A DNA stretch of 64,000 nt from the IMG/VR virus record IMGVR_UViG_3300045988_098886, one strand, 5' to 3'. This DNA comes from a virus. Below, in pieces: positions 592-16,201 of this stretch. A program made the position numbers and the translations under genes. Under the pieces are notes generated by a model, which saw only the letters and a program-made list of their open reading frames with translations, was not told the origin of the DNA and searched no databases. Numbering within the stretch: the first letter of the stretch is position 1; each line of letters opens with the position of its first letter.

Positions 592-675
592 TGGGCCCGG
601 CAGGACTCGAACCTGCAGTCCATTTAAGGAGTGGATTTACAGTCCACGCGGCTACCAATTACCGGTTACGTGCCC
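592..675 (-). tRNA. tRNA-Tyr (GTA), class II
   Basis: Anticodon arm GUGGA-CUGUAAA-UCCAC; long variable arm UCC-UUAAAU-GGA; T arm GCAGG-UUCGAGU-CCUGC; acceptor GGGCACG/CGGGCCC with one A-G mismatch. The D arm is non-canonical. Confidence 0.75.
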
Positions 676-787
676 AAGAAAAAACAGATGTGCATTTTTA
701 CAACATTCTATGGCGATTGTTTTTAAAAATTTGCTGTTGCACATCTTTGTAATCAATTAACAACTAAAATCAAAACACAATGGTAAG

Positions 788-860
788 TCTGGATAGCAGG
801 ATTCGAACCTGCGGTCTCTTGGTCCCAAACCAAGCATCTTACCAACTCGACTATATCCAG
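788..860 (-). tRNA. tRNA-Pro (TGG)
   Basis: Acceptor CUGGAUA/UAUCCAG; anticodon arm CUUGG-UUUGGGA-CCAAG; T arm GCAGG-UUCGAAU-CCUGC; 73 nt. Confidence 0.85.
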
Positions 861-871
861 AATTTGGGAGA

Positions 872-1477
872 TTAATCATTCTCCCAATAAGTTTTTAAAT
901 CAACGGCTGGACTTCTTTCATATAGGACTCCAGCTTTAATGGCTTCATTTAATTTTTCAGTAACTACTTCAACAGATTGTCCTCCAAACTTCAGATATAC
1001 CAAATTTTTCTTTTTAACAGACATAATTTTGGAATATTTAGGAATATTTTTACTTACTTCTCCCCAAAATACGGTCCATTCATTTTGGTTTCTTTTATTA
1101 CAGGTACAATTTGCACGACTTACTTTCTTAGAAGCAGTCTTTTTCACTTTAGCTTTAGCATTGTTTTTCTTTACTTCCTCATTTAAATTCTTTATCTCTT
1201 TTATATATAAATAATTAGAGATGAAGGTTTTAACTCCTGCTAAATTAAATGTCAATATCTGTGGTCCTTCTTTTACTTGAACCAAATATACTGTCTTAGC
1301 ATTTAAAGGATTAACAATTCTAATATCACAAGTAATCTTTGAAGCTTCTGGAAAGTGGTCACTCAAACCAATCTTAGCTTTACCAATTGTGTAGTATTTG
1401 CTATTAGTAGTTTGAGAATCACATATTGCATCCTTCTTGGTCATTAAAGACTCAAGATATTTACTTATGTAAGACAT
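872..1477 (-). CDS. hypothetical protein (201 aa, Lys-rich centre)
   Basis: Long ORF on the locally coding strand. Its start codon abuts the stop of the upstream gene (1477). No motif recognised. Confidence 0.6.
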   Translation of the reverse strand: MSYISKYLESLMTKKDAICDSQTTNSKYYTIGKAKIGLSDHFPEASKITCDIRIVNPLNAKTVYLVQVKEGPQILTFNLAGVKTFISNYLYIKEIKNLNEEVKKNNAKAKVKKTASKKVSRANCTCNKRNQNEWTVFWGEVSKNIPKYSKIMSVKKKNLVYLKFGGQSVEVVTEKLNEAIKAGVLYERSPAVDLKTYWEND

Positions 1478-1704
1478 TAGTGTTGATATTTACGGATTCT
1501 ACACTTGCAATCAGGGTCATGAACTACTCCCAGAGCCCTTGTACTACCACTACCTGTGGTAAATGAAATATACGTATGACCACTGTATTCAAATTTTCCA
1601 ACTCTTGTTGAATATGCTTGAACTTTAATAACAGAGTATTGCGGCTCAACTCTAGTACATCCTACTAAGGATATAATAGCTAGCAGATAAATTACCTTCC
1701 TCAT
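1477..1704 (-). CDS. small lipoprotein
   Basis: N-terminus MRKVIYLLAIISLVGC has a signal peptide plus a lipobox-like LVGC. Confidence 0.6.
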   Translation of the reverse strand: MRKVIYLLAIISLVGCTRVEPQYSVIKVQAYSTRVGKFEYSGHTYISFTTGSGSTRALGVVHDPDCKCRIRKYQH

Positions 1705-1738
1705 AATATTAATCTTTAATTAATAACTTATTTAATTG

Positions 1739-1810
1739 TGGGACGAGAGGGCTTCGAACCCCGACGCCAGGCTCTTCAGGCCTGCGCTCTACCAACTGAG
1801 CTATCGTCCC
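1739..1810 (-). tRNA. tRNA-Phe (GAA)
   Basis: GGGACGA-UA-GCUC-AGUUGGUA-GAGC-G-CAGGC-CUGAAGA-GCCUG...UUCGAAG...UCGUCCC-A; canonical cloverleaf. Confidence 0.9.
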
Positions 1811-2035
1811 ATTTCCTGTAGACATCACAATCTCTTTTTTAGTCTACAGGTTGCTCTCTATCCTCCCATATTCTGGGATTTCACACTATTGTTTGCGGAT
1901 TAGGTTCGTGTTTCCTCTTACCTTTTGGTACCTTTGAGAGCTTTCCGTACTTATTTATAGAATTATAAGTTGGGCTTTGCTGTACCTAATCCTTGTTAGA
2001 AATTACCTATCTACTTAATCTTTACCTAACCGCTG
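1811..2035 (-). ncRNA. candidate structured non-coding RNA between the Ro60-like gene and tRNA-Phe
   Basis: 225 nt with no ORF. On the minus strand there is a 9-bp long-range helix GGAUUAGGU...ACCUAAUCC (1985-1993 pairs with 1897-1905). A 9-bp hairpin CCUGUAGAC/GUCUACAGG (1815-1823 with 1842-1850) sits directly 5' of tRNA-Phe. Confidence 0.25.
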
Positions 2036-3757
2036 TTAGAGAGTAAGCATATTCAATAATTCTTGATTCATTGCTGCTTGGAACAATTCCAGAGCATTCT
2101 TTGGAATACTTTCAACAGGTGTTTTACCAGTAAGGAATGCAATTCCCGCGGGGTCAAGTCCACTCATGTAGAAAGTGTAATTGTCATCACAAAGTGATTC
2201 GAACTTAGGTCTGATGTTGCTCGAATAGAAACCATTAGGAATATCCCAAAGTACCATTACAAAGTTATCAACATACTCTTTAGAGAATCTTGTTCCCAGA
2301 AGTTCACGGAATCTTTCAAATACTGTTTTGTCTCTTCCGGCAGAGTTGAACTCACCATCAGAAATACAGAGGATTCCAGTTGGGAAATCTTCCTCTTTAT
2401 ATCCCTTATCTCTAAGTTGGATAAAGAGTTCAGCCACGGATAACAGATTGGTTGAACACCAACCGTCTCCACTGAATTTGGTGAATTTCTCATAGGGAGT
2501 ATCACCTTGCCACTGTTTCATTAAGCACCTGTCGGAGAACTCAAGGACAGTATTGGCAAATTTCCCTTCGAGTAAGTAAGAGAAATACAGAGCGATTGAT
2601 TTCGCTACATGATAAGCACTTACTTCAAGACCTGCGGCTTTACAAGTCATAGAGCCAGATGTATCAAGAACAGCAATAAGATTAGTCTTGCGATTCATAT
2701 CTTGTTTAGCTGTTTCAATAAGAGACATAAACTGCTTATTAACAGTGTCTATCTGGTAAGGTTTCAGAGCTGTTTTTCTCCCATTATAACAATCGTTATC
2801 AGGGAACAGTTCATATACAAATCCAGTGAATTTGGCTACTGGTTTTGCTGCTAACCACTCTTCGTATGCTTCGGTAAGATTGTGATTCTCCAAGAACTTA
2901 CTACTAGCAAGTTTTGATAGTGCTCTACCAGCAATCGAATTGAAATCAAGATTTAGATAGTCTTGACGGCTAATTGCCTGCTGCCATTTATGAGCATTAC
3001 CAGATGCTTTAAGTTCACGATACATTTTATATGCACGCCACTTACCTTCCTCTGCTTCGCCATAGTCGAATATTTCTTTCACGATTTTCTTAGCAATAAA
3101 GTTATTGCTTTGAGAACGTAAAGAAGTACACTTTTTTAATGGTTTGATTTGTGGAAGATACTTTCTCACCAAGTTGGTTTGACCATCGTCAGCTAAACCA
3201 CCGACAATAAACTTAATGATGTATTTCCAATCCAGAACTTTATTGACTGCACCATTGTATTCAAGGTCTAATCTTAATATTTCAAAGATGTCGTCCCAAG
3301 AACCAGCTGTAATGAAGACAGGCAAATTCTTTTTAAATACTTTTGGGTGTGTTGTGGCAAGCCAGATAATTCTCATGAAGAACTCGGATTTAAGTCCTTG
3401 TCCTCTTTGAACTCCTAATTTCTTACCTGTAAAGAGTTTTGGATTTCGTGTAATCAAACGGATGTACACTGTTTCTTTGATTGTTATTAAAGGGTCAACT
3501 GCCCACAATCTTTCCATAGTTGATGCGACTTCGTGAAACTCTCTAGGTTTCCTGTAGTTTCCAACGGCTGCGAAGTCGTCAACAAATACATTACCTGACG
3601 TATCATACTTCAAACTTCCATTACCAGAAGTTGTTTCATGTTCCATTTTATATGCTTCCCTTTGGAAGATATTTTCAAACTTGGGAGCATTTACTCCCGA
3701 ACCTTTAGTGACTTTAGGAGTCACTTCATAAATTGATGTTCTTTTTCTGTCAAACAT
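2036..3757 (-). CDS. DUF2828/TROVE-like N-terminal domain + C-terminal vWA (MIDAS) protein, Ro60-like architecture
   Basis: N-terminal TTSGNGSLKYDTSGNVFVDDF matches the TxNGxxxYxTSGNxxxDxF signature of DUF2828/TROVE-type proteins. C-terminal LIAVLDTSGSMT (DxSxS MIDAS) ... CISDGEFN is typical of vWA. Confidence 0.7.
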   Translation of the reverse strand: MFDRKRTSIYEVTPKVTKGSGVNAPKFENIFQREAYKMEHETTSGNGSLKYDTSGNVFVDDFAAVGNYRKPREFHEVASTMERLWAVDPLITIKETVYIRLITRNPKLFTGKKLGVQRGQGLKSEFFMRIIWLATTHPKVFKKNLPVFITAGSWDDIFEILRLDLEYNGAVNKVLDWKYIIKFIVGGLADDGQTNLVRKYLPQIKPLKKCTSLRSQSNNFIAKKIVKEIFDYGEAEEGKWRAYKMYRELKASGNAHKWQQAISRQDYLNLDFNSIAGRALSKLASSKFLENHNLTEAYEEWLAAKPVAKFTGFVYELFPDNDCYNGRKTALKPYQIDTVNKQFMSLIETAKQDMNRKTNLIAVLDTSGSMTCKAAGLEVSAYHVAKSIALYFSYLLEGKFANTVLEFSDRCLMKQWQGDTPYEKFTKFSGDGWCSTNLLSVAELFIQLRDKGYKEEDFPTGILCISDGEFNSAGRDKTVFERFRELLGTRFSKEYVDNFVMVLWDIPNGFYSSNIRPKFESLCDDNYTFYMSGLDPAGIAFLTGKTPVESIPKNALELFQAAMNQELLNMLTL

Positions 3758-3786
3758 ATTCAGGTTAATTTAAACATTTTACATAG

Positions 3787-3872
3787 TAGCTCCACCCGGA
3801 ATCGAACCGGGACGGCCCTTTCGGACCATCAGATTTTAAGTCTGACGCGTCTACCAATTCCGCCATAGAGCC
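3787..3872 (-). tRNA. tRNA-Leu (TAA), class II
   Basis: Acceptor GGCUCUA/UGGAGCU with G-U pairs; UGGCGGAAUUGGUAGACGC D region; anticodon arm UCAGA-CUUAAAA-UCUGA; variable arm GGUCC-GAAA-GGGCC; T arm CCCGG-UUCGAUU-CCGGG. Confidence 0.85.
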
Positions 3873-3883
3873 ATCCTTATTTT

Positions 3884-4015
3884 TTAGAAGCAATCATCGT
3901 CTGTATTGTCATTAGTTACATAATCAATCATTGCACCTGCAAGTATGACTAATCCAAATGAAACCAATAGAGATAAAATAAATATTATGACTACTCCTAG
4001 TATAAATTCTGCCAT
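3884..4015 (-). CDS. 43-aa single-pass membrane peptide
   Basis: Own translation: MAEFILGVVIIFILSLLVSFGLVILAGAMIDYVTNDNTDDDCF. A promoter box lies upstream. It is below the ORF-track length cut-off. Confidence 0.4.
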   Translation of the reverse strand: MAEFILGVVIIFILSLLVSFGLVILAGAMIDYVTNDNTDDDCF

Positions 4016-4041
4016 ACTTTTTCCTTTCTGATTAAGTGATG

Positions 4042-4049
4042 CAAAGATA
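4042..4049 (-). promoter_or_regulatory. Bacteroides-type -7 box (TATCTTTG on minus strand)
   Basis: Plus-strand CAAAGATA, 27 nt upstream of the ATG at 4015. Confidence 0.35.
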
Positions 4050-4139
4050 CTACAAAAAACTGAGCCTACAAACCTTTATTAGTTAAAATTTGTAAATTCT
4101 TCTTCATTTATTATGAGTTAGATTTATTTTGCTTATTTC

Positions 4140-4247
4140 TTAGTTATCTTTAAATATTTTAGTTGATAACCAACAAATAAAGCTAAATCCGGCTGCTATT
4201 GCTGCCATACAGAGAGTTCCTTGAAGAAAATAAATTATAAAATCCAT
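4140..4247 (-). CDS. 35-aa hydrophobic peptide
   Basis: Own translation: MDFIIYFLQGTLCMAAIAAGFSFICWLSTKIFKDN. There is a 1-nt gap to the upstream mini-ORF. Confidence 0.3.
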   Translation of the reverse strand: MDFIIYFLQGTLCMAAIAAGFSFICWLSTKIFKDN

Positions 4248-4248
4248 A

Positions 4249-4332
4249 TTATATTCCTTTCTTCCATTTAACATACAAGATAGCCAATCCGTATAAAATC
4301 GGAAAGGCTATCATACCATAAATAAACTCCAT
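4249..4332 (-). CDS. 27-aa hydrophobic peptide
   Basis: Own translation: MEFIYGMIAFPILYGLAILYVKWKKGI. Confidence 0.25.
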   Translation of the reverse strand: MEFIYGMIAFPILYGLAILYVKWKKGI

Positions 4333-4398
4333 TTTAGTTTGGTGTACTAAATATGAAGCAAACAATCAATATCACGCATATTACCGTGAGGAGTCCCA

Positions 4399-4749
4399 TT
4401 ACACTTCAACAATTTGAGATTTCATGCAGATATTCGGAGTACTGAGAACAGCGTATGCTTGTGCACTACCGACTCCTACCATTTTGACCTTTACACAGTC
4501 AGAATCAACAACAATAGGTGTAACATCATCACCATATTGGTCAGTGTCAACTGTTACAGCAGCAACTCCCAATTCAGAAGAGATGTGACCACAAATATCA
4601 GAAAGAACTTCCGGAAATGAATCATTGACCAGAATACATTCGAGCATTCCGTTCTGTGATATAACAGCCACCACCGGAGAATCGTTACTTACTTCAATTG
4701 CCAATTTGTTTTCACCTTCTTGTACCTTTGCAAATTCTAATTTCTTCAT
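4399..4749 (-). CDS. hypothetical protein (116 aa, acidic)
   Basis: ORF on the coding strand; no motif recognised. Confidence 0.6.
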   Translation of the reverse strand: MKKLEFAKVQEGENKLAIEVSNDSPVVAVISQNGMLECILVNDSFPEVLSDICGHISSELGVAAVTVDTDQYGDDVTPIVVDSDCVKVKMVGVGSAQAYAVLSTPNICMKSQIVEV

Positions 4750-4771
4750 CTTTAAAATATGATTTTATGGA

Positions 4772-4927
4772 TTAATAAATGTCGTTTTCAAGTTGTGCAG
4801 ATACACATACTTGCTCAATATCATAGTCAGGATTTTTCTGAGCTATTTCAATTGCAGATTTCACCACTTCGTTGAGACACCCATGTTCTTGAGCGTTCTC
4901 CAACATTCTTTCAATGATTCCGTTCAT
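4772..4927 (-). CDS. hypothetical 51-aa protein
   Basis: Own translation: MNGIIERMLENAQEHGCLNEVVKSAIEIAQKNPDYDIEQVCVSAQLENDIY. An ATGA start/stop overlap with the upstream gene (4924-4927) suggests translational coupling. Confidence 0.4.
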   Translation of the reverse strand: MNGIIERMLENAQEHGCLNEVVKSAIEIAQKNPDYDIEQVCVSAQLENDIY

Positions 4928-5175
4928 AGTTTAATTAGTGTTCCTTTTGATAAGATTTTAACTTTATTGGAAAAACACACAGCAGATATAGGAGCTGCGA
5001 GAAGAGTAGTATATGCCCTGCCCATAGGCTCACCTATTGGGATAATAATGTCTTTATATCTTTGTACAACATCCCCAGGCCTTAAATCCTCACTGTGCCA
5101 ACTAAGAATTTCCGCCACGTCTCCGTCCTTCATATCTGCAAGGCAACTTACTTGAGAGTCTGATACTTTAGCCAT
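4924..5175 (-). CDS. hypothetical protein (83 aa)
   Basis: ORF on the coding strand, overlapping both neighbours by a few nt. Confidence 0.6.
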   Translation of the reverse strand: MAKVSDSQVSCLADMKDGDVAEILSWHSEDLRPGDVVQRYKDIIIPIGEPMGRAYTTLLAAPISAVCFSNKVKILSKGTLIKL

Positions 5176-5740
5176 TTAGTTTACACTGTTTAATGATTTC
5201 TTTAGTAATAATTCCGCCTAATGCACGAGATGCTTTATCGATTGCGTCGAGATTGAATTCATCTTTATCGAATTTGAATTGAATCCATGTTGGCTCATTT
5301 GGTCTATAGTCTAAGTATGTTTTACATTTTTTAGTTCCTAAGACTTCATGTACCATATCAAGAATACGCTCTCCTGCTTTCTTAGTTCTTACAAATCCAG
5401 ATAAGTCATATCCAACACCTCTAGAGCTCCAATATTCTCCTTCTTCTGGACGCTCATCCTTAGGCATCCAATGCCAACTTGGAATACCAATTCTTGGATG
5501 AGGAATACGGATTGCTTGTTCCATTACATATTCAGAACGAGGATTCTCTGGGTCTTCTGGATAAGCAGCGTATTCACAAGTCGAATAGACAGTTGAACCT
5601 CTTACTTCAAAGTGTAAGCCACAATGTCTACAAGTTGCAGAAGATAGCCCTCCTCCAGATACACAACTTCCTCTTGCTGCATCACATCCACAGTTCGGAC
5701 AACCAAACTGTTCAAAATCAGAATATAATATTGATAACAT
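5168..5740 (-). CDS. zinc-ribbon protein (190 aa)
   Basis: N-terminal CPNCGC...CRHCG four-Cys ribbon; the rest is unrecognised. Confidence 0.65.
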   Translation of the reverse strand: MLSILYSDFEQFGCPNCGCDAARGSCVSGGGLSSATCRHCGLHFEVRGSTVYSTCEYAAYPEDPENPRSEYVMEQAIRIPHPRIGIPSWHWMPKDERPEEGEYWSSRGVGYDLSGFVRTKKAGERILDMVHEVLGTKKCKTYLDYRPNEPTWIQFKFDKDEFNLDAIDKASRALGGIITKEIIKQCKLNG

Positions 5741-6039
5741 TAGTAATTTGATTTAAATACAACTTCTTTGAAAGCTACATATACTTTATCATCTTGTTCA
5801 ACAAGGCAATCATTCTCCTCTAAGAACTTAGTGATAAAGTATGTAGGAATATCATAGTTATCAGTCACAAACATATCACGTTCTTTATCAAAGTGATAAC
5901 GTTCATGTCTTTCAAGCCGAGTAGGATTTCCATTAAGAGTAATCTCACCAGACAAAGGATTGTCTTTATCTGGCTTGATTCCCTTTATATAGATTGAATA
6001 CTTGGCATCCGGCAAATAAACTTGCTGAATTACACTCAC
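5740..6039 (-). CDS. hypothetical protein (99 aa)
   Basis: ORF on the coding strand, abutting its neighbours. Confidence 0.6.
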   Translation of the reverse strand: MSVIQQVYLPDAKYSIYIKGIKPDKDNPLSGEITLNGNPTRLERHERYHFDKERDMFVTDNYDIPTYFITKFLEENDCLVEQDDKVYVAFKEVVFKSNY

Positions 6040-6483
6040 TTACACTTCCTCCCAAGTAATTGTTACAACTTTCTTCAGGATTCTGTAGTCTCCAGTCTCT
6101 TTAAGAACAGAGATTGCCTTTTCAATCAAGTCCTCTTGGTCCATGATTTCCGGCTGTTGAGTGTTTATGGGAGTTTCGGAAGCAGCCATTTCTGCCTTCT
6201 TTTCTCTGCTACGCTTATTCAGCTCATTAGCTTTTTGTCTGTATTCCTTGAGATAGTTCTCCACTCTTCCAATGTAAACTGGGTCATTTGGAAGTTTGTA
6301 TCCTGATTTTGTTGCTTCGAACAACCCAAACTCTTGAGCAGTTGTGGAATATGTAGGAAGACCAGGCAGGATTCCCTTCAACAAGGTCGAAAGTTCACTA
6401 AGGGTAAAGATTTTACCTCTGTTCTCGTCTCTTACCATGTTGTACTTTCTACAAATCTCTTTTGCATCGTTTTTCTTTCCCAT
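6040..6483 (-). CDS. hypothetical protein (147 aa)
   Basis: ORF on the coding strand, abutting the next gene. Confidence 0.65.
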   Translation of the reverse strand: MGKKNDAKEICRKYNMVRDENRGKIFTLSELSTLLKGILPGLPTYSTTAQEFGLFEATKSGYKLPNDPVYIGRVENYLKEYRQKANELNKRSREKKAEMAASETPINTQQPEIMDQEDLIEKAISVLKETGDYRILKKVVTITWEEV

Positions 6484-6560
6484 AATCTTGAAATTTTTAG
6501 TTATTAATAAATTGAATTGATTTATTGTTGACTTAGAACTCTGTGTTCAGTGTGAGGTCT

Positions 6561-6758
6561 TTAAAATCCAAAACTCTTTAGTTGTTTATAATACCACTCA
6601 TGGTCGATTGATGCTTCATCTTGCTCTTGAACTGTATTGTAATAGTTCGCTAAGGTAATTTTCTTAGCAGAGTTCTTAGTGCTATGATAAGCCTTTTCAA
6701 TCGTCTTTAACAGTTTATCTTTCATCTCTCTGTATGTAAGGTTTCTAATGATTTGCAA
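6561..6758 (-). CDS. hypothetical protein (65 aa)
   Basis: ORF on the coding strand. Confidence 0.45.
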   Translation of the reverse strand: MQIIRNLTYREMKDKLLKTIEKAYHSTKNSAKKITLANYYNTVQEQDEASIDHEWYYKQLKSFGF

Positions 6759-6813
6759 CTACTTAGAAGAGCTAACCTAATTTACCATTAGAATAAAGGT
6801 ATAATTATGCAGT

Positions 6814-6857
6814 TATCTTTACGATAAACTTCTTACGGAATATCTTTACGATAAACT
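6814..6857. repeat. perfect 17-bp direct repeat TATCTTTACGATAAACT x2 (6814-6830, 6841-6857)
   Basis: Read directly from the sequence. The repeat is flanked by inverted TGCAGT (6808-6813) and ACTGCA (6855-6860). It lies in a non-coding region upstream of the 6758 gene start. Confidence 0.8.
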
Positions 6858-7084
6858 GCATACAGAATACCTCTATATTCAAATAATCCTTCAAACTGAA
6901 GGTTTTATTTGTTTTGCCATAGTTACGCTATGATTCGAATACTTTATAGTATTATCAACAGATTTAGATTAGCTAATACAAAGGATATCTGTACCTTTGT
7001 ATCCACTCGATATAGTTTAATTTCTGCGACCGAATCACAAGGTATCGGTAAGGAGATAAACTACTTACCTTAACCCGTCCTACA

Positions 7085-7237
7085 TCAATTTAAATATATA
7101 TTCTTCTTATTATCATAGATGCGAATCCATCTTGATATGTACTTGAAGTTGTTTTGTGAGCGAAACTTCCTAGCATCCTTCAGTTGGTTAAATGAACGTA
7201 TATGCTCGCCATCATCAAATCTACATGAATATCTCAT
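7085..7237 (-). CDS. possible 50-aa basic protein
   Basis: Own translation: MRYSCRFDDGEHIRSFNQLKDARKFRSQNNFKYISRWIRIYDNKKNIYLN. Short, with no supporting signals. Confidence 0.25.
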   Translation of the reverse strand: MRYSCRFDDGEHIRSFNQLKDARKFRSQNNFKYISRWIRIYDNKKNIYLN

Positions 7238-7258
7238 TTTGCTTTATAAATTTAGTTG

Positions 7259-7417
7259 TTATTTTACTATGTAAGGAGCTACTGTATATACAAACTTGAA
7301 TGCACTTCTTGCAAATGCTGATTCCAGTTTAGCCACTTCTGCTTCAAACGCAGCTTCTGCTGCCTCTCTAGTATCATATAACACGGAGAGATTATTAGTT
7401 ACAATATATTTCTTCAT
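7259..7417 (-). CDS. possible 52-aa protein
   Basis: Own translation: MKKYIVTNNLSVLYDTREAAEAAFEAEVAKLESAFARSAFKFVYTVAPYIVK. It starts 23 nt after the tmRNA 3' end. Confidence 0.35.
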   Translation of the reverse strand: MKKYIVTNNLSVLYDTREAAEAAFEAEVAKLESAFARSAFKFVYTVAPYIVK

Positions 7418-7439
7418 TGTTGTATGTATTTAAAGATTG

Positions 7440-7987
7440 TGGACCTGGGCGGAGTCGAACCGCCGTCCAAACAAAGTCCAATAATAGAATTTTACGTGTG
7501 TCTCTATTTTATTACATCAGCTGTTGAGTTCAGCATGTAGATAGTTTTACTAAGAAGCTGAGTGTTAATTCACCAATTACGTCTCCTCGTAAGGCTACGA
7601 CTTAGTTGTTCACAAACTACCAAACTGGGCTTGACCGAACGGTCGCTCCACCACTCCATTTACGTTGGAGAACGGATGATGTTTAGAGATTCGTCACACC
7701 TCATGGACCACATCTTCCATCTGCTTTATGACATTAGGAGATTTCAGCTTTACTAACCTTTGGCGTTCAAGTTAAGTGGGCTGCTCTATAATGCTTCTTC
7801 CCACACCTCTTCTGTTTCTAGGTCTCTCCCATTAACCCGACTTAGAGCTAATTTAATAGATAAGCCAGCAGCTTAGGCTGCCATTCTTACATCGCTTCTT
7901 TCAGCATTTATTGTTTTCCTTCGTTTACAGAGATTGCGCTCTACACGTTCTATTACCTTCTCTATGCTGTCAAAACCATACAGGCCC
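7440..7987 (-). ncRNA. ssrA: tmRNA (SsrA-like), about 548 nt
   Basis: 5' GGGCCUGUAUGGUUUUGACAGC and 3' GGAC-GGCGG-UUCGACU-CCGCC-CAGGUCC-A form a tRNA-Ala-like domain with a G3-U70 pair. The internal tag ORF is GCU GAA AGA AGC GAU GUA AGA AUG GCA GCC UAA (AERSDVRMAA). It is preceded by the A-rich AACAAUAAAU, and the stop codon sits in the loop of a GCAGC/GCUGC hairpin. Confidence 0.75.
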
Positions 7988-8118
7988 AGATAAAAGAAAG
8001 TAAGCCTTGGCATAGCAGGTGCTAGTAGGTGGCTATCCAAACTAACTATGCTGTACTTACGTTTTGTCCCGTTATTCTGTTTCTAGGATAACTAGCTTAC
8101 CCCATTAAGAAGAGATTC

Positions 8119-8424
8119 TTAGTCCTCTTTGTATTCAGCGTTCAATTCTTCAATGACTTCGTTGAGTTTATCAAGAATCAACTGACAATCGTCTTCCTCA
8201 ATCTTTGAGTCAACAATCTTTTCAATGATTTCTTTTGAACGTTCAGAATCGACATCATCGTCACCGAGAGATAAAAGTAATCTTTCTGTGCGGTCAGCAG
8301 AGGCCGCTTTGTCTTCTTCAGCATTTGCCTTTGCTAATCCAAGTACTGATAATATACGTTTCTCTCTGGCTTCTGCCAATGATTTACCTGTTTTCTTTTG
8401 TAAAATTGCTGATAATTTTTTCAT
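8119..8424 (-). CDS. hypothetical acidic coiled-coil protein (101 aa)
   Basis: ORF on the coding strand; Glu/Asp/Lys-rich. Confidence 0.6.
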   Translation of the reverse strand: MKKLSAILQKKTGKSLAEAREKRILSVLGLAKANAEEDKAASADRTERLLLSLGDDDVDSERSKEIIEKIVDSKIEEDDCQLILDKLNEVIEELNAEYKED

Positions 8425-8448
8425 GATGAAATATTTATTTGTTAATAT

Positions 8449-8778
8449 TTAAAACCTTACTTTAGCTTTTAAAGCTTTTTTGGCTTTTCTGTGATGAATT
8501 GGGAGTAGCATCCAAGCCATCCATGACCAACCACTTCCATTTCTATCTAGCACATCAATATCGAGATGATATAAATCTCTTCCAGAATAATGTGTATCCT
8601 TTCTAATGATTGTTGCAACTTTACCACAATATTTTTGCATTTCTAAGGTAAAGCACACTGCTTCTCCACAATAATCTGCACGATACTTAAAGATTTCTTT
8701 ACAATCTTTTCTAATATAGACTTTATCTCCTATCTCAAACTTTTGGAGATTTCCTTTTTCATTTCCTGGGTCTTCCAT
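8449..8778 (-). CDS. hypothetical protein, paralog of 8781-9065 (C-terminal KAKVRF)
   Basis: Shares the layout GDKVYI...W..W.LLP...KAKVRF-stop with its neighbour. The 3' ends carry an identical 16-nt stretch. Confidence 0.6.
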   Translation of the reverse strand: MEDPGNEKGNLQKFEIGDKVYIRKDCKEIFKYRADYCGEAVCFTLEMQKYCGKVATIIRKDTHYSGRDLYHLDIDVLDRNGSGWSWMAWMLLPIHHRKAKKALKAKVRF

Positions 8779-8780
8779 AA

Positions 8781-9065
8781 TTAAAATCTTACTTTAGCTT
8801 TTATGATTCTCCTTCTACTTTTGTTTTCAATACCTCGCATTGGGAGCCATACATATGAGTACTTACCATTAATGTCTTTGTATTTAACATATACGGAATT
8901 ATCTTTGTTATCTACGTCAAATATTTCGACATTTTTGTTTGCAACTCCTTCAAAGAAGTCTCTGTCCATAACAAAGTTCTCTTCGATTAAGTGATTATCA
9001 GAAGAGTTTTCATCAAACCATCCTAGTGATTTGACTTTTACTCTTTGTCCAGCTTTAAATACCAT
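8781..9065 (-). CDS. hypothetical protein, paralog of 8449-8778 (C-terminal KAKVRF)
   Basis: AGQRVKV...YVWLPMRG...IIKAKVRF-stop; tandem with 8449-8778. Confidence 0.6.
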   Translation of the reverse strand: MVFKAGQRVKVKSLGWFDENSSDNHLIEENFVMDRDFFEGVANKNVEIFDVDNKDNSVYVKYKDINGKYSYVWLPMRGIENKSRRRIIKAKVRF

Positions 9066-9236
9066 GATATTATGTTTTTAGTTAATAATGTTCGTCCTAT
9101 CTGTATTTATAGAGGCTTTAGACTCTCATACCTTTAAAGATATGGCTACATTAAACGGATGATTTGCCCTGTATTCACATACAAGACAAATCTTTACTAA
9201 TAATTTTAAAAAATGAAGTAACAACATGAATTCTTG

Positions 9237-9311
9237 AGGGAATGAAGAGATTCGAACTCTCAACCTTACCGTTCGTAGCGGTATGCTCTAATCCAATTGA
9301 GCTACATTCCC
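9237..9311 (-). tRNA. tRNA-Arg (ACG)
   Basis: GGGAAUG-UA-GCUC-AAUUGGAUUA-GAGC-A-UACCG-CUACGAA-CGGUA-AGGUU-GAGAG-UUCGAAU-CUCUU-CAUUCCC-U. Confidence 0.9.
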
Positions 9312-9729
9312 AACCAGCGGATTTCCCGCTTTGTCATATTAGTTTTATAAATGGTTGTAATGGTTACCAACCCGGCTGGATTTCGTCTTGGCCTTCGACT
9401 ACTTGGAATAATAAGTTTGCATGTAAAGCTTCCCTCTTCGCTCAATTTACTAGGCTGCCGTCCTAACCCTAACTCTTCTTATCGGGTATGCAATTATTCC
9501 TTTCTCATTACCACTATCTTGGAAATATAAATACACCGCTTTCATAATACTGTTTCATCCATAAACATCGTTGTTTAGCGGGCTGTATTATTAAATAGTA
9601 TGATAGTCAGTTTCTATCAGAGTGTTGCGCACCACTCAACAGTGTATTGAAAGTCATACAAGGCCTGACTTCCTTATTGGCACAGTTTATAAATATAATG
9701 TATAACTAAAATACGGAATTGATTATGAT
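9312..9729 (-). ncRNA. candidate structured non-coding region upstream of tRNA-Arg
   Basis: About 420 nt without a credible ORF on the coding strand. Several local hairpins appear on the minus strand (AAGUCA/UGACUU, GAUAG/CUAUC, AUAAUAC/GUAUUAU enclosing GCCCGCU with a downstream AGCGG, AGCGG/CCGCU next to the tRNA). Class unknown. Confidence 0.2.
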
Positions 9730-9996
9730 TTATTCATCAGCTTCGAGAGCTATTGGAAGAGCAGCTCTTACTGTTTGCTGCAAATCAACAGTGTTAACAC
9801 CGTTATTATTTGCATACAGATAGAGTGCATCAATAGCATCTCTGCATTCATCCCTTTCTTCTGGATTCTCTGACTGTGCAAGCTGCATTTCATAATCAAT
9901 GATACCTGCAAATGCAATTCCTGGGAGATAAGTTTTTTTGTCTTCTTCTGACATTGATTCCATTACGGAATATACTGGAAGTTCTTCAAGATTCAT
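9730..9996 (-). CDS. hypothetical acidic protein (88 aa)
   Basis: ORF on the coding strand. Confidence 0.55.
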   Translation of the reverse strand: MNLEELPVYSVMESMSEEDKKTYLPGIAFAGIIDYEMQLAQSENPEERDECRDAIDALYLYANNNGVNTVDLQQTVRAALPIALEADE

Positions 9997-10067
9997 AACT
10001 TTGTTTCTTTATGTAAGATTTGAGCTCTACTGGTGACTACAAATATCCTTTACGGAATCTTACGGTT

Positions 10068-10304
10068 TTACAATTCGTTTACTAATGCAGTTATTTCATC
10101 CTGCACATCATCAATACACTCTCGGAGATTTAACATACTGGCGAGATTTTCTTCGGATGGGTTTTCAACCCAAGCAAGTTCAGCCTTCTCTAAGTAACCA
10201 AGGAGTTTACGGCGACGTTCATTCAATTTCTCTAATCTTTCTTCAGGATGTTCTCCTTCTAAGACAAGAGCAAAAAATACTGATGTTATAACTCTTCTTT
10301 GCAT
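10068..10304 (-). CDS. hypothetical protein (78 aa)
   Basis: ORF on the coding strand; helical, charged. Confidence 0.5.
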   Translation of the reverse strand: MQRRVITSVFFALVLEGEHPEERLEKLNERRRKLLGYLEKAELAWVENPSEENLASMLNLRECIDDVQDEITALVNEL

Positions 10305-10531
10305 GATTTAGTAAATTTGGTTTTGATGTAATTAATGAACAGGATGATTGGAGATAATGCAAGTATGTTCATACAAATAGTATCGAACATATTCCAATTC
10401 CAGTGAGTGATTTCGTAGCCTGCAATATACTTGATTGCAACTCCAATTGTAGCCAGTACAATAATGATTGCGATTATTAAGCCGAGGAAAACAATCCCAG
10501 CTAATGCAACTGCCAATATATTCTTTATCAT
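10286..10531 (-). CDS. membrane protein (81 aa, 2-3 TM segments)
   Basis: ILAVALAGIVFLGLIIAIIIVLATIGVAI and ICMNILALSPIILFI are hydrophobic spans. Confidence 0.55.
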   Translation of the reverse strand: MIKNILAVALAGIVFLGLIIAIIIVLATIGVAIKYIAGYEITHWNWNMFDTICMNILALSPIILFINYIKTKFTKSCKEEL

Positions 10532-10714
10532 ATCTATCTAAGTTAATGGGTTAAAATAAAAAATAGGATATAAAAGAACTGGATTTTTCCAGAATGAGTT
10601 GATTGATTGTTGTTGTCTATATCCACCGTATTTCTGGCGGAATTTTGAAAGTGGGGAAAATCGGGAAAATAGTGGGCGATAAGCAGAGTCCTCTCGCGCT
10701 CCTATCTACCCTCC

Positions 10715-10993
10715 TCACACCGGCAAGACTCGAATTATTTCCCAAACTGTTGCTTTACTTTGCTTAAAAAGAAGTAAATACATTAAGGGAGTGTTGGGAT
10801 AACATTGTGCACAAGGGAGATATTCATTTGTCCGCATGTCACGAATCCGCTTAACCTTTTCATCTGTAACATATCCTAAGACAGTTTTAAACTGTCCAGT
10901 CTTTTTTCCATAGTGCTTCGTTGCTGTGTACATGGCTACATGCTGCTTATAGATTATAGGAGCGCTACATAAAGGATAAAAAAGGATAGTCAT
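10715..10993 (-). CDS. hypothetical protein in the GC-richer cassette (92 aa; true start may be the internal Met at MYTATKHYG)
   Basis: ORF on the coding strand; its composition differs from the surrounding genes. Confidence 0.4.
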   Translation of the reverse strand: MTILFYPLCSAPIIYKQHVAMYTATKHYGKKTGQFKTVLGYVTDEKVKRIRDMRTNEYLPCAQCYPNTPLMYLLLFKQSKATVWEIIRVLPV

Positions 10994-11027
10994 TTCTGAC
11001 TATCCTATGTGTTTACAGATTAACAGA

Positions 11028-11660
11028 TTAACGGGTAAACGGTAAATCCATATTTGCAGCCGCAAAATGACTTTTCAAATTTTCATCTTGCGACGGTTCA
11101 AAAGATTCTTTCATTATTTCGCCAATCTTTTTAAAAATTTCCTCTTTTACTTTTGGCTCAAAAGTCCACCGTTTACGAACCGTAGCCCCGTTAATGGTTG
11201 GTTGTCCGTTTTCAAACTGCAAAGAAACGACATTCTTTTGCTCAAGGGCTTGCAAAACCTGTTTGTTATCAAACCAGCCTTTCACCGTTTCGTATGCGCT
11301 TTTTCCGTTTGTACGCGAACTTCCTGCAATGATTTCAATTTGTGGCATTGCACGTACCATATCAAGCGTACACCCGTCCGGCAAATTTTCAGATTCGCAA
11401 AGGTTTGCGGTTCTTTGTACTCCTGCTATGGAAACACTACCAAATTTCACGAACTCCAAATTTTCAGGATTAAATAACATTGTCATAAATGCGCCGAAAG
11501 TCACGCCGTTTGTGCGGATTGTCTTTTCCTCAATGATAGGCAAAACAACTGTTAAGTAATTTGCTGAAAGTCCGTTATCACTTCCCGCACTTGCTGCTGT
11601 TTCCATAAACTTTTTTACCTTGTCACTGTTAGCACTCAAAACGTTAATTTTTGCTTTCAT
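11028..11660 (-). CDS. hypothetical 210-aa protein with SSB-like C-terminal DLPF tip
   Basis: Start trimmed to MKAKINVLSAN because the longer track ORF runs through a GC hairpin. The C-terminus ...HFAAANMDLPFTR resembles the D-[IL]-P-F tip of bacterial SSBs. There is no OB-fold evidence by eye. Confidence 0.5.
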   Translation of the reverse strand: MKAKINVLSANSDKVKKFMETAASAGSDNGLSANYLTVVLPIIEEKTIRTNGVTFGAFMTMLFNPENLEFVKFGSVSIAGVQRTANLCESENLPDGCTLDMVRAMPQIEIIAGSSRTNGKSAYETVKGWFDNKQVLQALEQKNVVSLQFENGQPTINGATVRKRWTFEPKVKEEIFKKIGEIMKESFEPSQDENLKSHFAAANMDLPFTR

Positions 11661-11706
11661 AATCTTTTTTTGTTTAAAATTGTTACTAAATAAAATTTCT
11701 ATATTT

Positions 11707-11725
11707 AGGCGGATTTTCACCGCCT
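11707..11725. terminator. GC hairpin AGGCGG-AUUUUCA-CCGCCU
   Basis: 6-bp GC-rich stem. The T-run (TTATTTTTT) follows it on the plus strand, while an A-run precedes it on the minus strand. It sits between two minus-strand ORFs, so its orientation and function are ambiguous. Confidence 0.3.
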
Positions 11726-11731
11726 TATTTT

Positions 11732-11875
11732 TTACAAGTTGTTAAGCATATTACAAACCGCACTTGCACCGTACAAACGTACCATTTCCAAATAGTTCGG
11801 AACGTTCGTTTTAACTTTGCTTGTTAAGTTTACGCTTACTTTCTTTGTCTCTTTGTTGTTTCTAACTGTTTTCAT
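11732..11875 (-). CDS. 47-aa basic protein
   Basis: Own translation: MKTVRNNKETKKVSVNLTSKVKTNVPNYLEMVRLYGASAVCNMLNNL. It is the first gene of the GC-richer cassette. Confidence 0.35.
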   Translation of the reverse strand: MKTVRNNKETKKVSVNLTSKVKTNVPNYLEMVRLYGASAVCNMLNNL

Positions 11876-12090
11876 GATTGTAATCTTTTTTTAAATTAGT
11901 AATTTTTCCGTTTGGAAAGAATGAAATTATTTTCATTTTTCTCCAACTACCCTCGGGGGGCGTTAGAGGGTACTCTACTCTCTCGCTTGTAGTTATTACG
12001 TAAACTCTCTCATTTGTAGATTGCACAAAAATCATTTCCCAAATTTCTCTATATAAGTCACTATATATTATTTGAATCCCGACTGGGACA

Positions 12091-12100
12091 GGGGGGGGGG
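12091..12100. repeat. G10 homopolymer
   Basis: GGGACA-GGGGGGGGGG-ACT read directly. Conspicuous in a roughly 30% GC genome and located in the divergent intergenic region. Confidence 0.9.
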
Positions 12101-12247
12101 ACTATATTTAAGTACCTATATATAATGTACGCGCGTGAAGAAGAAAATAAAAAATTTGAGTAAAAACATACATAGGCTCAAAATACTGTTCGCGAGATTT
12201 TGTCTGCCGAGAAAAACGAAGTTTTTCGAGATTACGTATAGTTCTTA

Positions 12248-12268
12248 TTAAGTATAGATTAAGTATAG
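12248..12268. repeat. tandem 11-bp repeat TTAAGTATAG(A) x2
   Basis: TTAAGTATAG at 12248-12257 and at 12259-12268. Confidence 0.8.
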
Positions 12269-12276
12269 TTAGAGTC

Positions 12277-12400
12277 CACTTTTGAAAATAATCGGTTCAC
12301 TTTTGACATCGAATGGTACATTTTTGAAAATGGTTTAGTACAATTTTGACAAACCCTTGATTTTCAGCACTTTAACAATTCTTAATGGTACAGATTTTGT
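12277..12400 (+). repeat. iteron-like direct repeats (Y)ACNNTTTTGA(A/C)A, four copies at 21-22 bp spacing plus a fifth degenerate copy
   Basis: CACTTTTGA 12277-12285; CACTTTTGA 12298-12306; ACATTTTTGA 12318-12327; TACAATTTTGA 12339-12349; TACAGATTTTGT 12389-12400. AATGGTACA precedes copies 3 and 5. Confidence 0.7.
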
Positions 12401-12418
12401 ACTATTAAAAAATTGCCG

Positions 12419-12426
12419 TATCTTTG
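12419..12426 (+). promoter_or_regulatory. Bacteroides-type -7 box TATCTTTG
   Basis: Exact TAnnTTTG, 20 nt upstream of the ATG at 12446. Confidence 0.45.
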
Positions 12427-12445
12427 TATTATTAAATAATAAGGC

Positions 12446-13171
12446 ATGGAAAATAAACCACAACACATTCAAGTTCCAAACGATATGTGTAAAGAACATA
12501 ACCTAGACCCTACTGATGTCTATGTTTACAGTTACTTGAAAACGTATATGAATAAGGATACTTATGAAGCATTTCCATCCATGGAAACACTAGCGAAAGA
12601 TGCTGGAGTGAGTAAAACTACTGTTAATAAAGCTATTAAAAATCTTGTAGCTAATGGAGACATTTCAGTTAGAAAAGAGGGAAGAAAAAATGTCTATAAA
12701 TTTAATCCCTCTTCTAAAAACTTTGAAATGTTTACATATAAATTTATGAGAGATGTTGACCTTACTTCCCAACAAAGAATATATATTATATTGACACAAC
12801 AATATATGTATAAAGATGAGGAAGGATATGGCAAGCTCACTTACTCAAACCAAGAACTTTCAGAAGAAATTGGATTAAGTGCTTCCACTATTTATAGAAG
12901 AAATAAAGAATTAGAAGATAAAGGAATATTACAAGTAATAGATACAGATAAGAAAGACCCAGAAACAGGAGTAGCAATACAATTGAAATTATTTGATTTA
13001 TCTAAAATAGCACAAGATGTACTCTTTATAAAGAAGAAACTAGAAGAACATGATAAAGAGATTAAAGAAAACAGTAAGACCATTAAGCTCTTATCTAAGG
13101 AAGTTGAAGAATTAAGAGCAGAGATAAAGAAATTGAAGGGAGATACAGAATTAAAAATGATAATGGATTAA
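12446..13171 (+). CDS. double winged-HTH DNA-binding protein (replication initiator or transcription regulator candidate) with C-terminal coiled coil
   Basis: Two HTH-like segments: METLAKDAGVSKTTVNKAIKNLVANGDISVRKEG and NQELSEEIGLSASTIYRRNKELEDKGILQV. It is the first gene downstream of the iteron-like repeats. Confidence 0.6.
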   Translation: MENKPQHIQVPNDMCKEHNLDPTDVYVYSYLKTYMNKDTYEAFPSMETLAKDAGVSKTTVNKAIKNLVANGDISVRKEGRKNVYKFNPSSKNFEMFTYKFMRDVDLTSQQRIYIILTQQYMYKDEEGYGKLTYSNQELSEEIGLSASTIYRRNKELEDKGILQVIDTDKKDPETGVAIQLKLFDLSKIAQDVLFIKKKLEEHDKEIKENSKTIKLLSKEVEELRAEIKKLKGDTELKMIMD

Positions 13172-13176
13172 TAAAA

Positions 13177-13746
13177 ATGAGTACAAAGCAAGAAGTACTT
13201 TGGATGATTGATAATTTATGTGTAACACATACAGGATTTGATACGCTTGCACTTAAAAAGATGGTAGAAAAACTTGATGATAGACATCTAATATTAGAAG
13301 AAGACAATAACGGAGTTGTTACTGCAACTATAAAAGCTTATCCAAGTCCAGCAAAGTATGTGATACAAAAAGGAAAAGTATCTTACATACAAGAATATAG
13401 TGGAGGAACTACCAAATCCGAACGCTTAATTTCTGACTTAGAATCTTTCCTAAGAGAGTTTGAAAACCCAAAACTAAAAGAGTTAATATTTGATAACTTT
13501 CAAAACAGGATTGATGATATTTATGTAGGAGTAAGAGAACATAGAAATTTGGATGTTCTAAGAGAAGAGTTTTGCCATTTACAGCAGGATATTTTAACTA
13601 AGCAATCCGAATTTAACAATAATACCGTTATTGAAGTATTAAGGAAAGCAGGATTTGAGATAACTAAAACCACTAAAGATATTATTACATGTGCAATAGA
13701 TAATTACTTAGACATTAACGTGAAAACAATAGACAATTTAGACTAA
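13177..13746 (+). CDS. hypothetical protein (189 aa)
   Basis: ORF on the coding strand, tightly packed. Confidence 0.65.
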   Translation: MSTKQEVLWMIDNLCVTHTGFDTLALKKMVEKLDDRHLILEEDNNGVVTATIKAYPSPAKYVIQKGKVSYIQEYSGGTTKSERLISDLESFLREFENPKLKELIFDNFQNRIDDIYVGVREHRNLDVLREEFCHLQQDILTKQSEFNNNTVIEVLRKAGFEITKTTKDIITCAIDNYLDINVKTIDNLD

Positions 13747-14300
13747 TGAATCCAATTATAATTATACAAGCAGACTTTATACAAGAACAAGAATTTACCT
13801 TTGATAATTTCGATGAATTAAAAGGTTATCTTAAAGGTAAAACAATTTATGTGAGAGAGGAATCTTTACAAAAAGTTAAAGACATACTAGGGCTATTGGG
13901 CCTTAGACATGAAAAACAAATGGTAGAATATCGCGAGGATACCAGTAGAGTAATCGAAGTAGACAATACTACTTATACAGTAGACTTTAGTAAGAATTAT
14001 GAAGACTATGACATTGATGGAGAGGAACTTATTGAGGATTATTATAAACTCAAAGAAGAACTTATCTACTCTATCATTCCTTGGCCCATTACTATCTCGG
14101 AAGCAAGAGAAATGAATAATCTCAAACTCTCTAAGATTCAAGCATTGGCAGAAACTATGGTAGCAGTAGTACATAATCTTGAGCTTACAGAAGACGATAT
14201 GGAAGTAGAATGGATGTTCGGAAGACATGGGATTAAGGATGCAGCCCAATTCCTTGAAGACTTAGATATCCAGCACGATAATCTTAAATATATATGGTAG
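13746..14300 (+). CDS. hypothetical acidic protein (184 aa)
   Basis: ORF on the coding strand; TAATG stop/start junction with the upstream gene (ATG follows the stop directly). Confidence 0.65.
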   Translation: MNPIIIIQADFIQEQEFTFDNFDELKGYLKGKTIYVREESLQKVKDILGLLGLRHEKQMVEYREDTSRVIEVDNTTYTVDFSKNYEDYDIDGEELIEDYYKLKEELIYSIIPWPITISEAREMNNLKLSKIQALAETMVAVVHNLELTEDDMEVEWMFGRHGIKDAAQFLEDLDIQHDNLKYIW

Positions 14301-14539
14301 AAGGAATACGTAAGTGTATTATTGAATTAAAAAATCTTGAGCAAGGGATTGAATATGCAGTGGCTGACATTAATAAAAGAAATACAGCCCTCGCATCTCA
14401 AGAACAGAACATGGTTCAATTATCATCTGAAGTTGAAACTCTTAAAAAAGAGAATGAATCTTTAAAGAAAGAAAACGAAGAACTAAAGAATAAAATAAAG
14501 GAATTGGAGAAAGATGAATCAGGAAATCAACCTAGTTGA
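14294..14539 (+). CDS. coiled-coil protein (81 aa)
   Basis: Heptad-like SEVETLKKENESLKKENEELKNKIKELEK. Confidence 0.55.
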   Translation: MVEGIRKCIIELKNLEQGIEYAVADINKRNTALASQEQNMVQLSSEVETLKKENESLKKENEELKNKIKELEKDESGNQPS

Positions 14540-14619
14540 GGAAGCTTTATATATGGATGCATACATAGTAGAAGAATGGATTTATTATTTTCCAGACATG
14601 GAAACAATATTTTTAAATT

Positions 14620-16200: not shown

Positions 16201-16201
16201 A

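Follow-up and report, generated by a model that had tools for sequence, protein, structure and literature searches.

Phage genomes are known to carry transfer-messenger RNA (tmRNA) genes, notably those of the cluster C mycobacteriophages (Bxz1 and others), Bacillus phage G and the huge phages; among the genomes of isolated phages, about 2.3% contain one (PMC4131195, PMC7162821, PMC9004378). In these phages a complete ssrA gene lies in a large genome beside many tRNA genes, and the role proposed for it is to sustain or redirect translation. The same setting and the same proposed role apply to the tmRNA gene described here, which occupies positions 7440-7987 of the minus strand in a 64,000-nt stretch of viral DNA (the window; IMG/VR record IMGVR_UViG_3300045988_098886). 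Phage tmRNAs are thus established, if uncommon, and the novelty lies in the oversized form of this one, in its tag ending in Arg-Met-Ala-Ala, and in its probable crAss-like carriers from the gut. The known phage tmRNAs were found with ARAGORN and are therefore of ordinary length, whereas the family described here is mostly missed by that program (68 of 72 sequences). Huge phages often carry SmpB as well, but none was found here in the window or in related flanks.

The Rfam tmRNA model RF00023 (374 positions, gathering score 47 bits) matches 7437-7987 on the minus strand with 75.1 bits (E 2.4e-27), covering all model positions from 1 to 374. Chance does not account for such a match, which bears out the original prediction, made from the letters of the DNA, of a tmRNA at 7440-7987. 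Within 7300-8150 RF00023 scores above its threshold, and no Rfam family other than tmRNA, introns and riboswitches included, matches at E ≤ 1. Taken together with a reading of the sequence, the match delimits a complete, one-piece gene of 548 nt from G1 to the discriminator A, with the 5' end GGGCCUGUAUGGUUUUGAC starting at 7987 and the 3' end ...GGACGGCGGUUCGACUCCGCCCAGGUCCA at 7440. The DNA continues as ...GGUCC-A-CAA, so that CCA is not encoded but would be added after transcription, giving a mature RNA of 551 nt; the terminal ...UCCA noted originally is refined to the acceptor strand plus the discriminator.

On the native window ARAGORN called six tRNAs and no tmRNA. After deletion of at least 140 nt from the body (length ≤ 408 nt) it called a tmRNA with the tag AERSDVRMAA* at RNA positions 83-115, and it made no tmRNA call on constructs of 428 nt or more; length is therefore the only obstacle for the program. 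ARAGORN, which had been suggested as a check, hence missed the gene as it stands and recovered the same tag once the body was shortened. This is an annotation blind spot: pipelines and surveys based on ARAGORN, such as Pharokka, the huge-phage survey and the estimate of 2.3%, cannot see tmRNAs above about 410-430 nt, while covariance models do find oversized ones.

Two known variant forms were considered and rejected. A permuted, two-piece tmRNA is ruled out by the standard gene order and by the sub-threshold scores of the permuted model RF04321 (29.3 and 20.1 bits; threshold 47). The form with an intron in the T loop is ruled out by the intact T loop (UUCGACU) and the lack of any group I intron match: nowhere in the window did Intron_gpI reach its gathering threshold, and within 7300-8150 it gave no match even at E ≤ 1. 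The possibility of an intron-like insert, raised with the original prediction, thus found no support in the intron models. Intron-form genes, with a group I intron in the T-psi-C loop, likewise exceed 500 bp, the smallest being 545 bp (PMC11915505), but the T loop of the phage gene is uninterrupted and its extra sequence consists of four short segments in the pseudoknot arc. Another phage tmRNA with extra sequence is that of the OM43 phage Melnitz, a two-piece permuted tmRNA with a glutamine riboswitch (PMC9004378); unlike it, the present gene is not permuted and shows no riboswitch family at E ≤ 1. The 2025 tmRNA database surveyed RefSeq viruses, not viromes (PMC11915505).

The gene belongs to a family. 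A homologue with 66% identity and the tag AEIAPVRMAA lies on MT837398, a gut phage contig in GenBank; with RF00023 it reaches 68.8 bits, the score listed for locus L001. Exact-pattern scans of IMG/VR with three conserved blocks returned 69, 69 and 97 loci. They amount to 113 IMG/VR loci, or 115 phage loci once two GenBank contigs are counted, and nearly all of the contigs come from human-gut samples and measure 90-270 kb. From these, 73 complete genes were extracted (61 unique, 513-601 nt). ARAGORN called four of 72 native family sequences, and all 61 unique ones once they were trimmed to 380 nt. A scan of bacterial contigs with a single loose 16-mer, ATGGCAGCNTRAGCTG, gave at least 120 loci; among the matches listed, none was a tmRNA at the match site, a result that says nothing on absence from bacteria. 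One of these bacterial loci, L170, held by chance an unrelated tmRNA of the Marinilabiliaceae (Bacteroidales).

That bacterial tmRNA (L170:4494-4892; 399 nt, 159 bits, tag GETNYALAA) is a useful standard for comparison. Both RNAs form the acceptor stem from their two ends, with G3-U70, and share the T arm, the GGAUUUGACAG and UUGUUUGGAC motifs and a long helix 2. In both, a hairpin followed by GUAAA precedes an A-rich leader, U(-5)A(-4) stands before an Ala or Gly resume codon, the tag has 9-10 amino acids and ends in Ala-Ala, the stop codon lies in the loop of helix 5, and CCA is not encoded. The phage-borne RNA differs in its length (548 nt; family 513-601 nt), its score of 75 bits, its RMAA instead of ALAA end, and in that a second stem of pseudoknot 1 (PK1) was not found.

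The tRNA-like domain and helix 2 are made up as follows.
7981-7987, minus strand: 5' strand of the acceptor stem, GGGCCUG, RNA positions 1-7, pairing with 7441-7447 and including G3.
7440-7464, minus strand: T arm GGCGG UUCGACU CCGCC (RNA 524-540), followed by CAGGUCC (541-547) and discriminator A548.
7943-7956, minus strand: 5' strand of helix 2, RNA 32-45, pairing with RNA 489-507.
7481-7499, minus strand: 3' strand of helix 2, RNA 489-507.

Pairing was assessed with a hand-built structure of 17 helices as designed (19 as split by the tool) and 91 pairs, counted on an alignment of 51 unique sequences. In this structure 92.6% of cells were paired, against 35-49% in controls whose partners were slid by 1-3 columns; 33 pairs changed on both sides (7-10 in the controls), and the covariation score was 0.266 (0.04-0.07). 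Automatic helix discovery on a MAFFT alignment was dropped, being too noisy in the variable regions. Covariation in this comparison supports the acceptor stem, the T arm, helix 2, the hairpin at the stop codon and a pseudoknot resembling pseudoknot 2 (PK2-like). G3-U70 is kept in 51 of 51 sequences, with an A after the acceptor strand. All cells of the acceptor and T stems are paired (100%), while acceptor pairs 5 and 7 covary (CG43/UA6/UG2 and AU30/GC21) and four of the five T-stem pairs show changes on both sides. Helix 2 has 14 pairs, 99.8-100% paired, with compensatory changes in six. The ends of the RNA, its alanine-type acceptor with G3-U70 and its T arm were thus correctly recognized at the outset, as judged by both sequence reading and covariation.

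The mRNA-like part carries a short open frame.
7873-7905, minus strand: tag frame GCU GAA AGA AGC GAU GUA AGA AUG GCA GCC UAA, encoding AERSDVRMAA and a stop, RNA 83-115.

Upstream of its GCU lies the A-rich leader AACAAUAAAU, with AAUAAAU directly before the frame, and the GCU falls on the consensus resume codon in the Rfam alignment. This placement and the ARAGORN calls on shortened constructs both uphold AERSDVRMAA, the tag first proposed. U(-5)A(-4) precedes the resume codon in every variant read, which we take to be the known frame-setting context (compare U85 and A86 of E. coli tmRNA). Across the family 14 tag variants of 9-10 amino acids occur, all in frame and with insertions and deletions of whole codons: GNTEVRMAA, AEIAPVRMAA, ATYSEVRMAA, AERSDVRMAA, AERSDYRMAA, AEIDYNRMAA, AAYSEVRMAA, GETEGFRMAA, ANTSVRMAA, AERSEYRMAA, GNTTYRMAA, ATTSVRMAA, GNTVYRMVA and ANNSVRLAA. 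Arg stands at -4 in 14 of 14, and the end is always hydrophobic-(Ala/Val)-Ala, namely RMAA or, rarely, RLAA or RMVA. This is the pattern expected of a putative translated tag that keeps a C-terminal degradation signal. The tag had been called unusual for its MAA end and its internal charge. By sequence comparison, its unusual features are the Met replacing Leu in that end and the invariant Arg at -4; internal charge is not among them, since it is common among tmRNA tags. Some variants begin with GET or GNT, a similarity to the Bacteroidales tag GETNYALAA that hints weakly at Bacteroidota ancestry. Being distinctive, the ...R-[M/L]-[A/V]-A end could be sought in gut metaproteomes as a sign of phage-driven tagging in situ.

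As a separate observation, AGAAUG (the Arg-Met codons; 7882-7887, RNA 101-106) is complementary to the invariant CGUUCU (7669-7674, RNA 314-319) 200 nt downstream, and the pairing survives through G-U in CGUUUU variants. It could be due to chance, or could mask the end of the tag frame.

Around and behind the frame, the following elements were recognized.
7929-7942, minus strand: hairpin at the PK1 position, AGAG-CGCAAU-CUCU, RNA 46-59, stem invariant in the 51 sequences.
7868-7881, minus strand: helix 5, GCAGC-CUAA-GCUGC, with the UAA in the loop, RNA 107-120, invariant in the 51-sequence alignment.
7839-7866, minus strand: helix 6-like stem GGCUUA/UAAGUC round a small variable hairpin, RNA 122-149.
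7736-7838, minus strand: PK2-like pseudoknot, RNA 150-252, whose stem GGGUUAA/UUAACUU encloses a variable helix GUGGG/CCCAC.
7520-7544, minus strand: element resembling pseudoknot 4 (PK4-like), CUAUC and then hairpin GCUG-AACUCAA-CAGC, RNA 444-468.

Helix 5 shows compensated variants in further homologues, GUAGC/GCUAC in L229 and GCUGC/GCAGC in L230; with the sequence reading, these substantiate the early claim that the stop codon sits in the loop of a GCAGC/GCUGC hairpin. Directly after the hairpin at the PK1 position comes GUAAAC, as in the Rfam consensus. The helix 6-like stem has 90.5% of its cells paired, its changes are one-sided, and the local fold has -4.5 kcal/mol (z -1.7). In the PK2-like element the crossing stem GGGAGA/UCUCCU changes on both sides in five of six pairs and reads GGAAGG/CCUUCC in L043 and L069, so that a pseudoknot is supported here by the aligned sequences. 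The PK4-like hairpin covaries (CCAG/CUGG in L065, GCUAG/CUAGC in others), and its loop AACU can pair with AGUU at RNA 362-365 (7623-7626), a pairing 99.5% realized and almost invariant. The pseudoknots originally suggested for inspection thus differ in standing: the PK2-like one is supported, the PK4-like pairing is compatible with the data but nearly invariant, and PK1 is represented by a hairpin only.

The RNA had been predicted at about 548 nt, with extra sequence held in its body, and both statements hold: it is oversized against the 374-position Rfam model and the 399-nt Bacteroidales tmRNA, and four variable segments lie between core blocks. It is about 150-175 nt longer than ordinary tmRNAs. 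RNA 1-82 and 489-548 are of ordinary size, and the extra length lies in the arc from PK2 to PK4; from stop codon to helix 2 the arc measures 373 nt, compared with about 211 nt in L170. Seven near-invariant blocks were found, with four segments of varying length between them and all other intervals constant within a few nucleotides.
7805-7825, minus strand: core element AGACCUAGAAACAGAAGAGGU, 21 nt, RNA 163-183, at least 88% identity at each position in the 51 unique sequences.
7654-7674, minus strand: conserved block CGUUCUCCAAC with hairpin CUCCA-ACGUAAA-UGGAG, RNA 314-334, 95% of cells paired.
Variable segment from the PK2 core to UUAA: 29-77 nt in the family, 30 nt in the window copy.
7675-7733, minus strand: variable segment B, from GUUAGUA to CGUUCU, RNA 255-313; 40-77 nt in the family, 76 nt in the window copy.
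Variable segment from CGUUCU to GUUUGG: 25-100 nt in the family, 39 nt in the window copy.
7549-7611, minus strand: variable segment C, from GUUUGG to AACUAYC, RNA 377-439; 40-69 nt in the family, 65 nt in the window copy.

An 18-nt core of AGACCUAGAAACAGAAGAGGU alone retrieved 97 viral loci. The closing helix of segment C, GGUAG/CUAUC, is 99.6% paired, and in the L018 group the block-and-hairpin is replaced by CCUACUUU/AAAGUAGG. The best explanation of the roughly 160 extra nucleotides is lineage-specific expansion of the PK2-PK4 arc, retained as part of the mature RNA. On the evidence of PMC11915505 the family is beyond the usual size of standard-form tmRNAs. With its invariant blocks alternating with exchangeable segments, the family amounts to a natural experiment on the degree of change that the pseudoknot arc tolerates.

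A 31-nt hairpin module, GTTTGGAAGCGTCAGCTTCTGAACCTTTAA, was also seen in the tmRNA body (at about columns 450-510 of alignment A2). It occurs once in L031, L033, L065, L080 and L091, as two tandem copies in L079 and not in the window copy; it may be a small hairpin that duplicates or moves. Two ORFs (open reading frames) overlap the gene, one of 55 amino acids (7873-8040, minus strand) that is the tag frame extended upstream, and one of 64 amino acids on the opposite strand inside the variable body (7562-7756, plus strand). Neither is gene-like, since the insertions and deletions of homologues there are not multiples of three.

From these comparisons we conclude, with a probability of roughly 0.72, that the locus encodes a functional, intron-less tmRNA of standard form that adds ribosome-rescue capacity in infection; the identity of the gene, its structure, its conservation and its tag are shown by the analyses, while its expression, its reliance on host factors, its rescue activity and the fate of the tagged proteins we infer. 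The RNA would be transcribed along with the neighbouring minus-strand genes and tRNAs, excised by tRNA-processing enzymes of the host and completed at its 3' end by the host CCA-adding enzyme. The alanyl-tRNA synthetase of the host would charge it with alanine by way of G3-U70 and A73, and host SmpB and EF-Tu would deliver it to stalled ribosomes whose mRNA is broken or lacks a stop codon. Translation would then resume on GCU, add AERSDVRMAA and terminate at UAA, freeing the ribosome. The net effect would be extra rescue capacity during infection, when decaying mRNA, RNase-based defences and, in some relatives, the suppression of stop codons would raise demand. Tagged chains would probably still be degraded, since the tag preserves the hydrophobic X-Ala-COOH end typical of a degradation signal. 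That the phage may manipulate translation or ribosome rescue through its tmRNA, as first suggested, is a reasonable proposal.

Several observations weigh against this conclusion. The score of 75 bits is less than half that of the bacterial L170 tmRNA (159 bits). Shuffled sequences fold just as well as segments B (z -0.09) and C (z 0.10), which are the largest two of the inserts. Most nucleotides of the tag end, AGAAUGGCAGC, are invariant and lie inside helix 5, so the conservation of RMAA could partly reflect constraint on the RNA and not on the peptide. The search for SmpB used the E. coli protein as query, by tblastn only, and covered part of each genome. Finally, of the PK1 geometry expected at the tag, the hairpin and GUAAA are present, whereas no second PK1 stem was found for the window copy. 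In other subgroups this stem has just a 3-bp candidate, which covaries (GCA/UGC versus GUA/UAC), and Tanner et al. reportedly found in 2006 that a hairpin can replace PK1 in E. coli.

The phage tmRNA might instead compete for limiting SmpB and replace the host tag (for example ...YALAA) with ...RMAA, which could slow or hasten degradation, direct the chains to another protease or adaptor, or let them escape a host response that senses tags; a factor of the phage or of the host may then bind to the enlarged body or the 21-nt element. Such a role fits with Arg being invariant at -4 in 14 variants whose upstream residues vary freely, and also with the ALAA end of the single Bacteroidales tmRNA at hand, the failure to find a phage SmpB, through which both RNAs would share the host protein, and the conservation of blocks such as AGACCUAGAAACAGAAGAGGU well beyond the needs of a helix. 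However, the terminal hydrophobic-Ala-Ala that degradation tags need is retained, the Met/Leu and Ala/Val swaps resemble ordinary degron drift, the invariant nucleotides overlap helix 5, and the ten neighbouring ORFs searched against Pfam include no candidate partner protein; we consider replacement of the host tag unlikely. A little less likely again is the broader proposal of a prevalent human-gut phage family with its own trans-translation, in which the enlarged tmRNA out-competes the host RNA for SmpB, the RMAA end alters the fate of the chains, for instance through another choice of protease or adaptor or by blinding a stress or defence signal of the host, and the 21-nt element and the expansions are docking sites for a factor of phage or host. 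If this were true, the tmRNA would be a takeover device, not a spare part. A simpler inhibitor, an RNA that titrates host SmpB and so shuts down host trans-translation, would also agree with the failure to find a phage SmpB, and has been proposed for the RNA of mycobacteriophage DS6A, which consists of the tRNA-like domain only (PMC4131195, PMC11915505). But the mRNA-like domain here is complete, and the resume context, open frame, helix 5 stop and whole-codon insertions and deletions are kept in 61 unique sequences, coding features that a pure decoy would not need, which makes an inhibitor very improbable.

It is improbable, too, that some of the extra segments are intervening sequences which are excised from the transcript, so that 548 nt would be the length of the gene only and the mature RNA would be normal in size or consist of two pieces. 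An unusual wealth of self-splicing introns has been reported for Zeta crAss-like genomes (PMC7886860), and the authors of the tmRNA database note that introns lying elsewhere than in the T loop may have escaped detection (PMC11915505). Segments B and C also lack a thermodynamic structure signal, but the extra length is divided among four sites, which at 25-100 nt each are below the size of group I or II introns, and helices closing or inside the variable segments covary. No intron family matches 7300-8150 at E ≤ 1, and the T loop, to our knowledge the only intron site in tmRNA genes, is intact. Least probable is a dead relic, either a copy of a host ssrA gene or an attP fragment left by imprecise excision. 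The ssrA gene is a common integration site of prophages, and fragments of it occur in prophages, as discussed in PMC9004378. The phage gene, however, is of full length, shows compensatory changes across more than 70 viral contigs, lies in the tRNA block of an apparently lytic phage and is unlike all bacterial loci among the matches listed in the 16-mer scan; a relic is contradicted by covariation and by conservation of the tag frame.

With E. coli SmpB as query, tblastn found no homologue in the window, where the best E was 0.1, and none in the 869 kb of flanks from relatives. The test is a weak one, although the query itself is sound, giving a 100% match to known phage-borne and prophage copies. 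Pfam searches of ten neighbouring ORFs returned no SmpB and nothing relevant. With no SmpB found, no alanyl-tRNA synthetase and no encoded CCA, the RNA appears to depend on host factors. The Bacteroidota -7 motif TAnnTTTG is absent from 31 of 31 unique upstream regions, and a scan near the gene for promoters of the sigma-70 type gave no more sites than in shuffled sequence, so no dedicated promoter was found. The next ORF begins 22 nt past the tmRNA 3' end, which suggests co-transcription followed by processing. In L001, L005, L021 and L072 a TATAAT-rich motif (ACTATAATGCTATAAT and variants) lies 0-60 nt upstream of the tmRNA; it is absent from the window, and the pattern may bear on the transcribing polymerase or the host.

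The window encodes a terminase (26347-28650), a portal protein (28878-31064), a tail protein, an endolysin and a reverse transcriptase; the first four confirm that the tmRNA is phage-encoded, as had been presumed. PHROG gave no match for the majority of the large ORFs. With the terminases of Crassvirales the phage terminase shares 27-29% identity, while its closest relatives are unannotated 'Bacteriophage sp.' contigs from human faeces. Megablast of window positions 1-20000 against INPHARED found no near-identical record; the related sequences were unannotated gut contigs only. Over 8.7 kb the window and the IMG/VR contig L049 (140,591 bp) share 99.9% identity; for relatives 148-192 kb long the figure is 85-97%, and one relative contig has 270 kb. 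Phages of the 'Zeta' crAss-like group have genomes of 145-192 kb, the deepest terminase branch, a tRNA block, diversity-generating retroelements and few homologues (PMC7886860, PMC12386605). Going by these published traits, the carrier is probably a large, apparently lytic gut phage of that group, and the contigs with homologues probably belong there too. The word tmRNA does not occur in either of these genome papers, PMC7886860 and PMC12386605, the former of which (2021) searched for tRNAs with tRNAscan-SE only. With this tmRNA, ribosome rescue would join the host functions carried by abundant crAss-like gut phages.

The six tRNA genes said to accompany the tmRNA are indeed present, all on its strand, and were found by both ARAGORN and RF00005; the first five form a block at 418-3872.
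418-504, minus strand: tRNA-Trp (CCA).
591-675, minus strand: tRNA-Tyr (GTA).
787-860, minus strand: tRNA-Pro (TGG).
1738-1810, minus strand: tRNA-Phe (GAA).
3786-3872, minus strand: tRNA-Leu (TAA).
9236-9311, minus strand: tRNA-Arg (ACG), 1.25 kb upstream of the tmRNA.

The 'Trp' tRNA at 418-504 is 87 nt long, with a long variable arm, AGCGAAAGCU, and a D region like that of Ser or Leu tRNAs. It has a type II shape with a Trp anticodon, and could be related to the opal-suppressor tRNAs of Zeta phages. tRNAs of the amber-suppressor type (CTA; 'Pyl' in ARAGORN) occur near the tmRNA in L009, L076, L081, L086 and L087 and not in the window; stop-codon read-through would raise the demand for ribosome rescue. 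Inside the tRNA block lies a gene for a 573-amino-acid protein (2036-3757, minus strand) that matches PHROG 850, 'RNA-binding protein' (E 3.5e-32), and the Pfam domains DUF2828 and DUF7788; the protein is a possible factor for RNA handling, with a link to the tRNA/tmRNA cluster. The reverse transcriptase gene (53642-54886, plus strand; PHROG 1423, E 1.6e-115) lies near a large tail-fibre-like gene (58169-61576, plus strand), which suggests a diversity-generating retroelement as reported for Zeta phages (PMC12386605).

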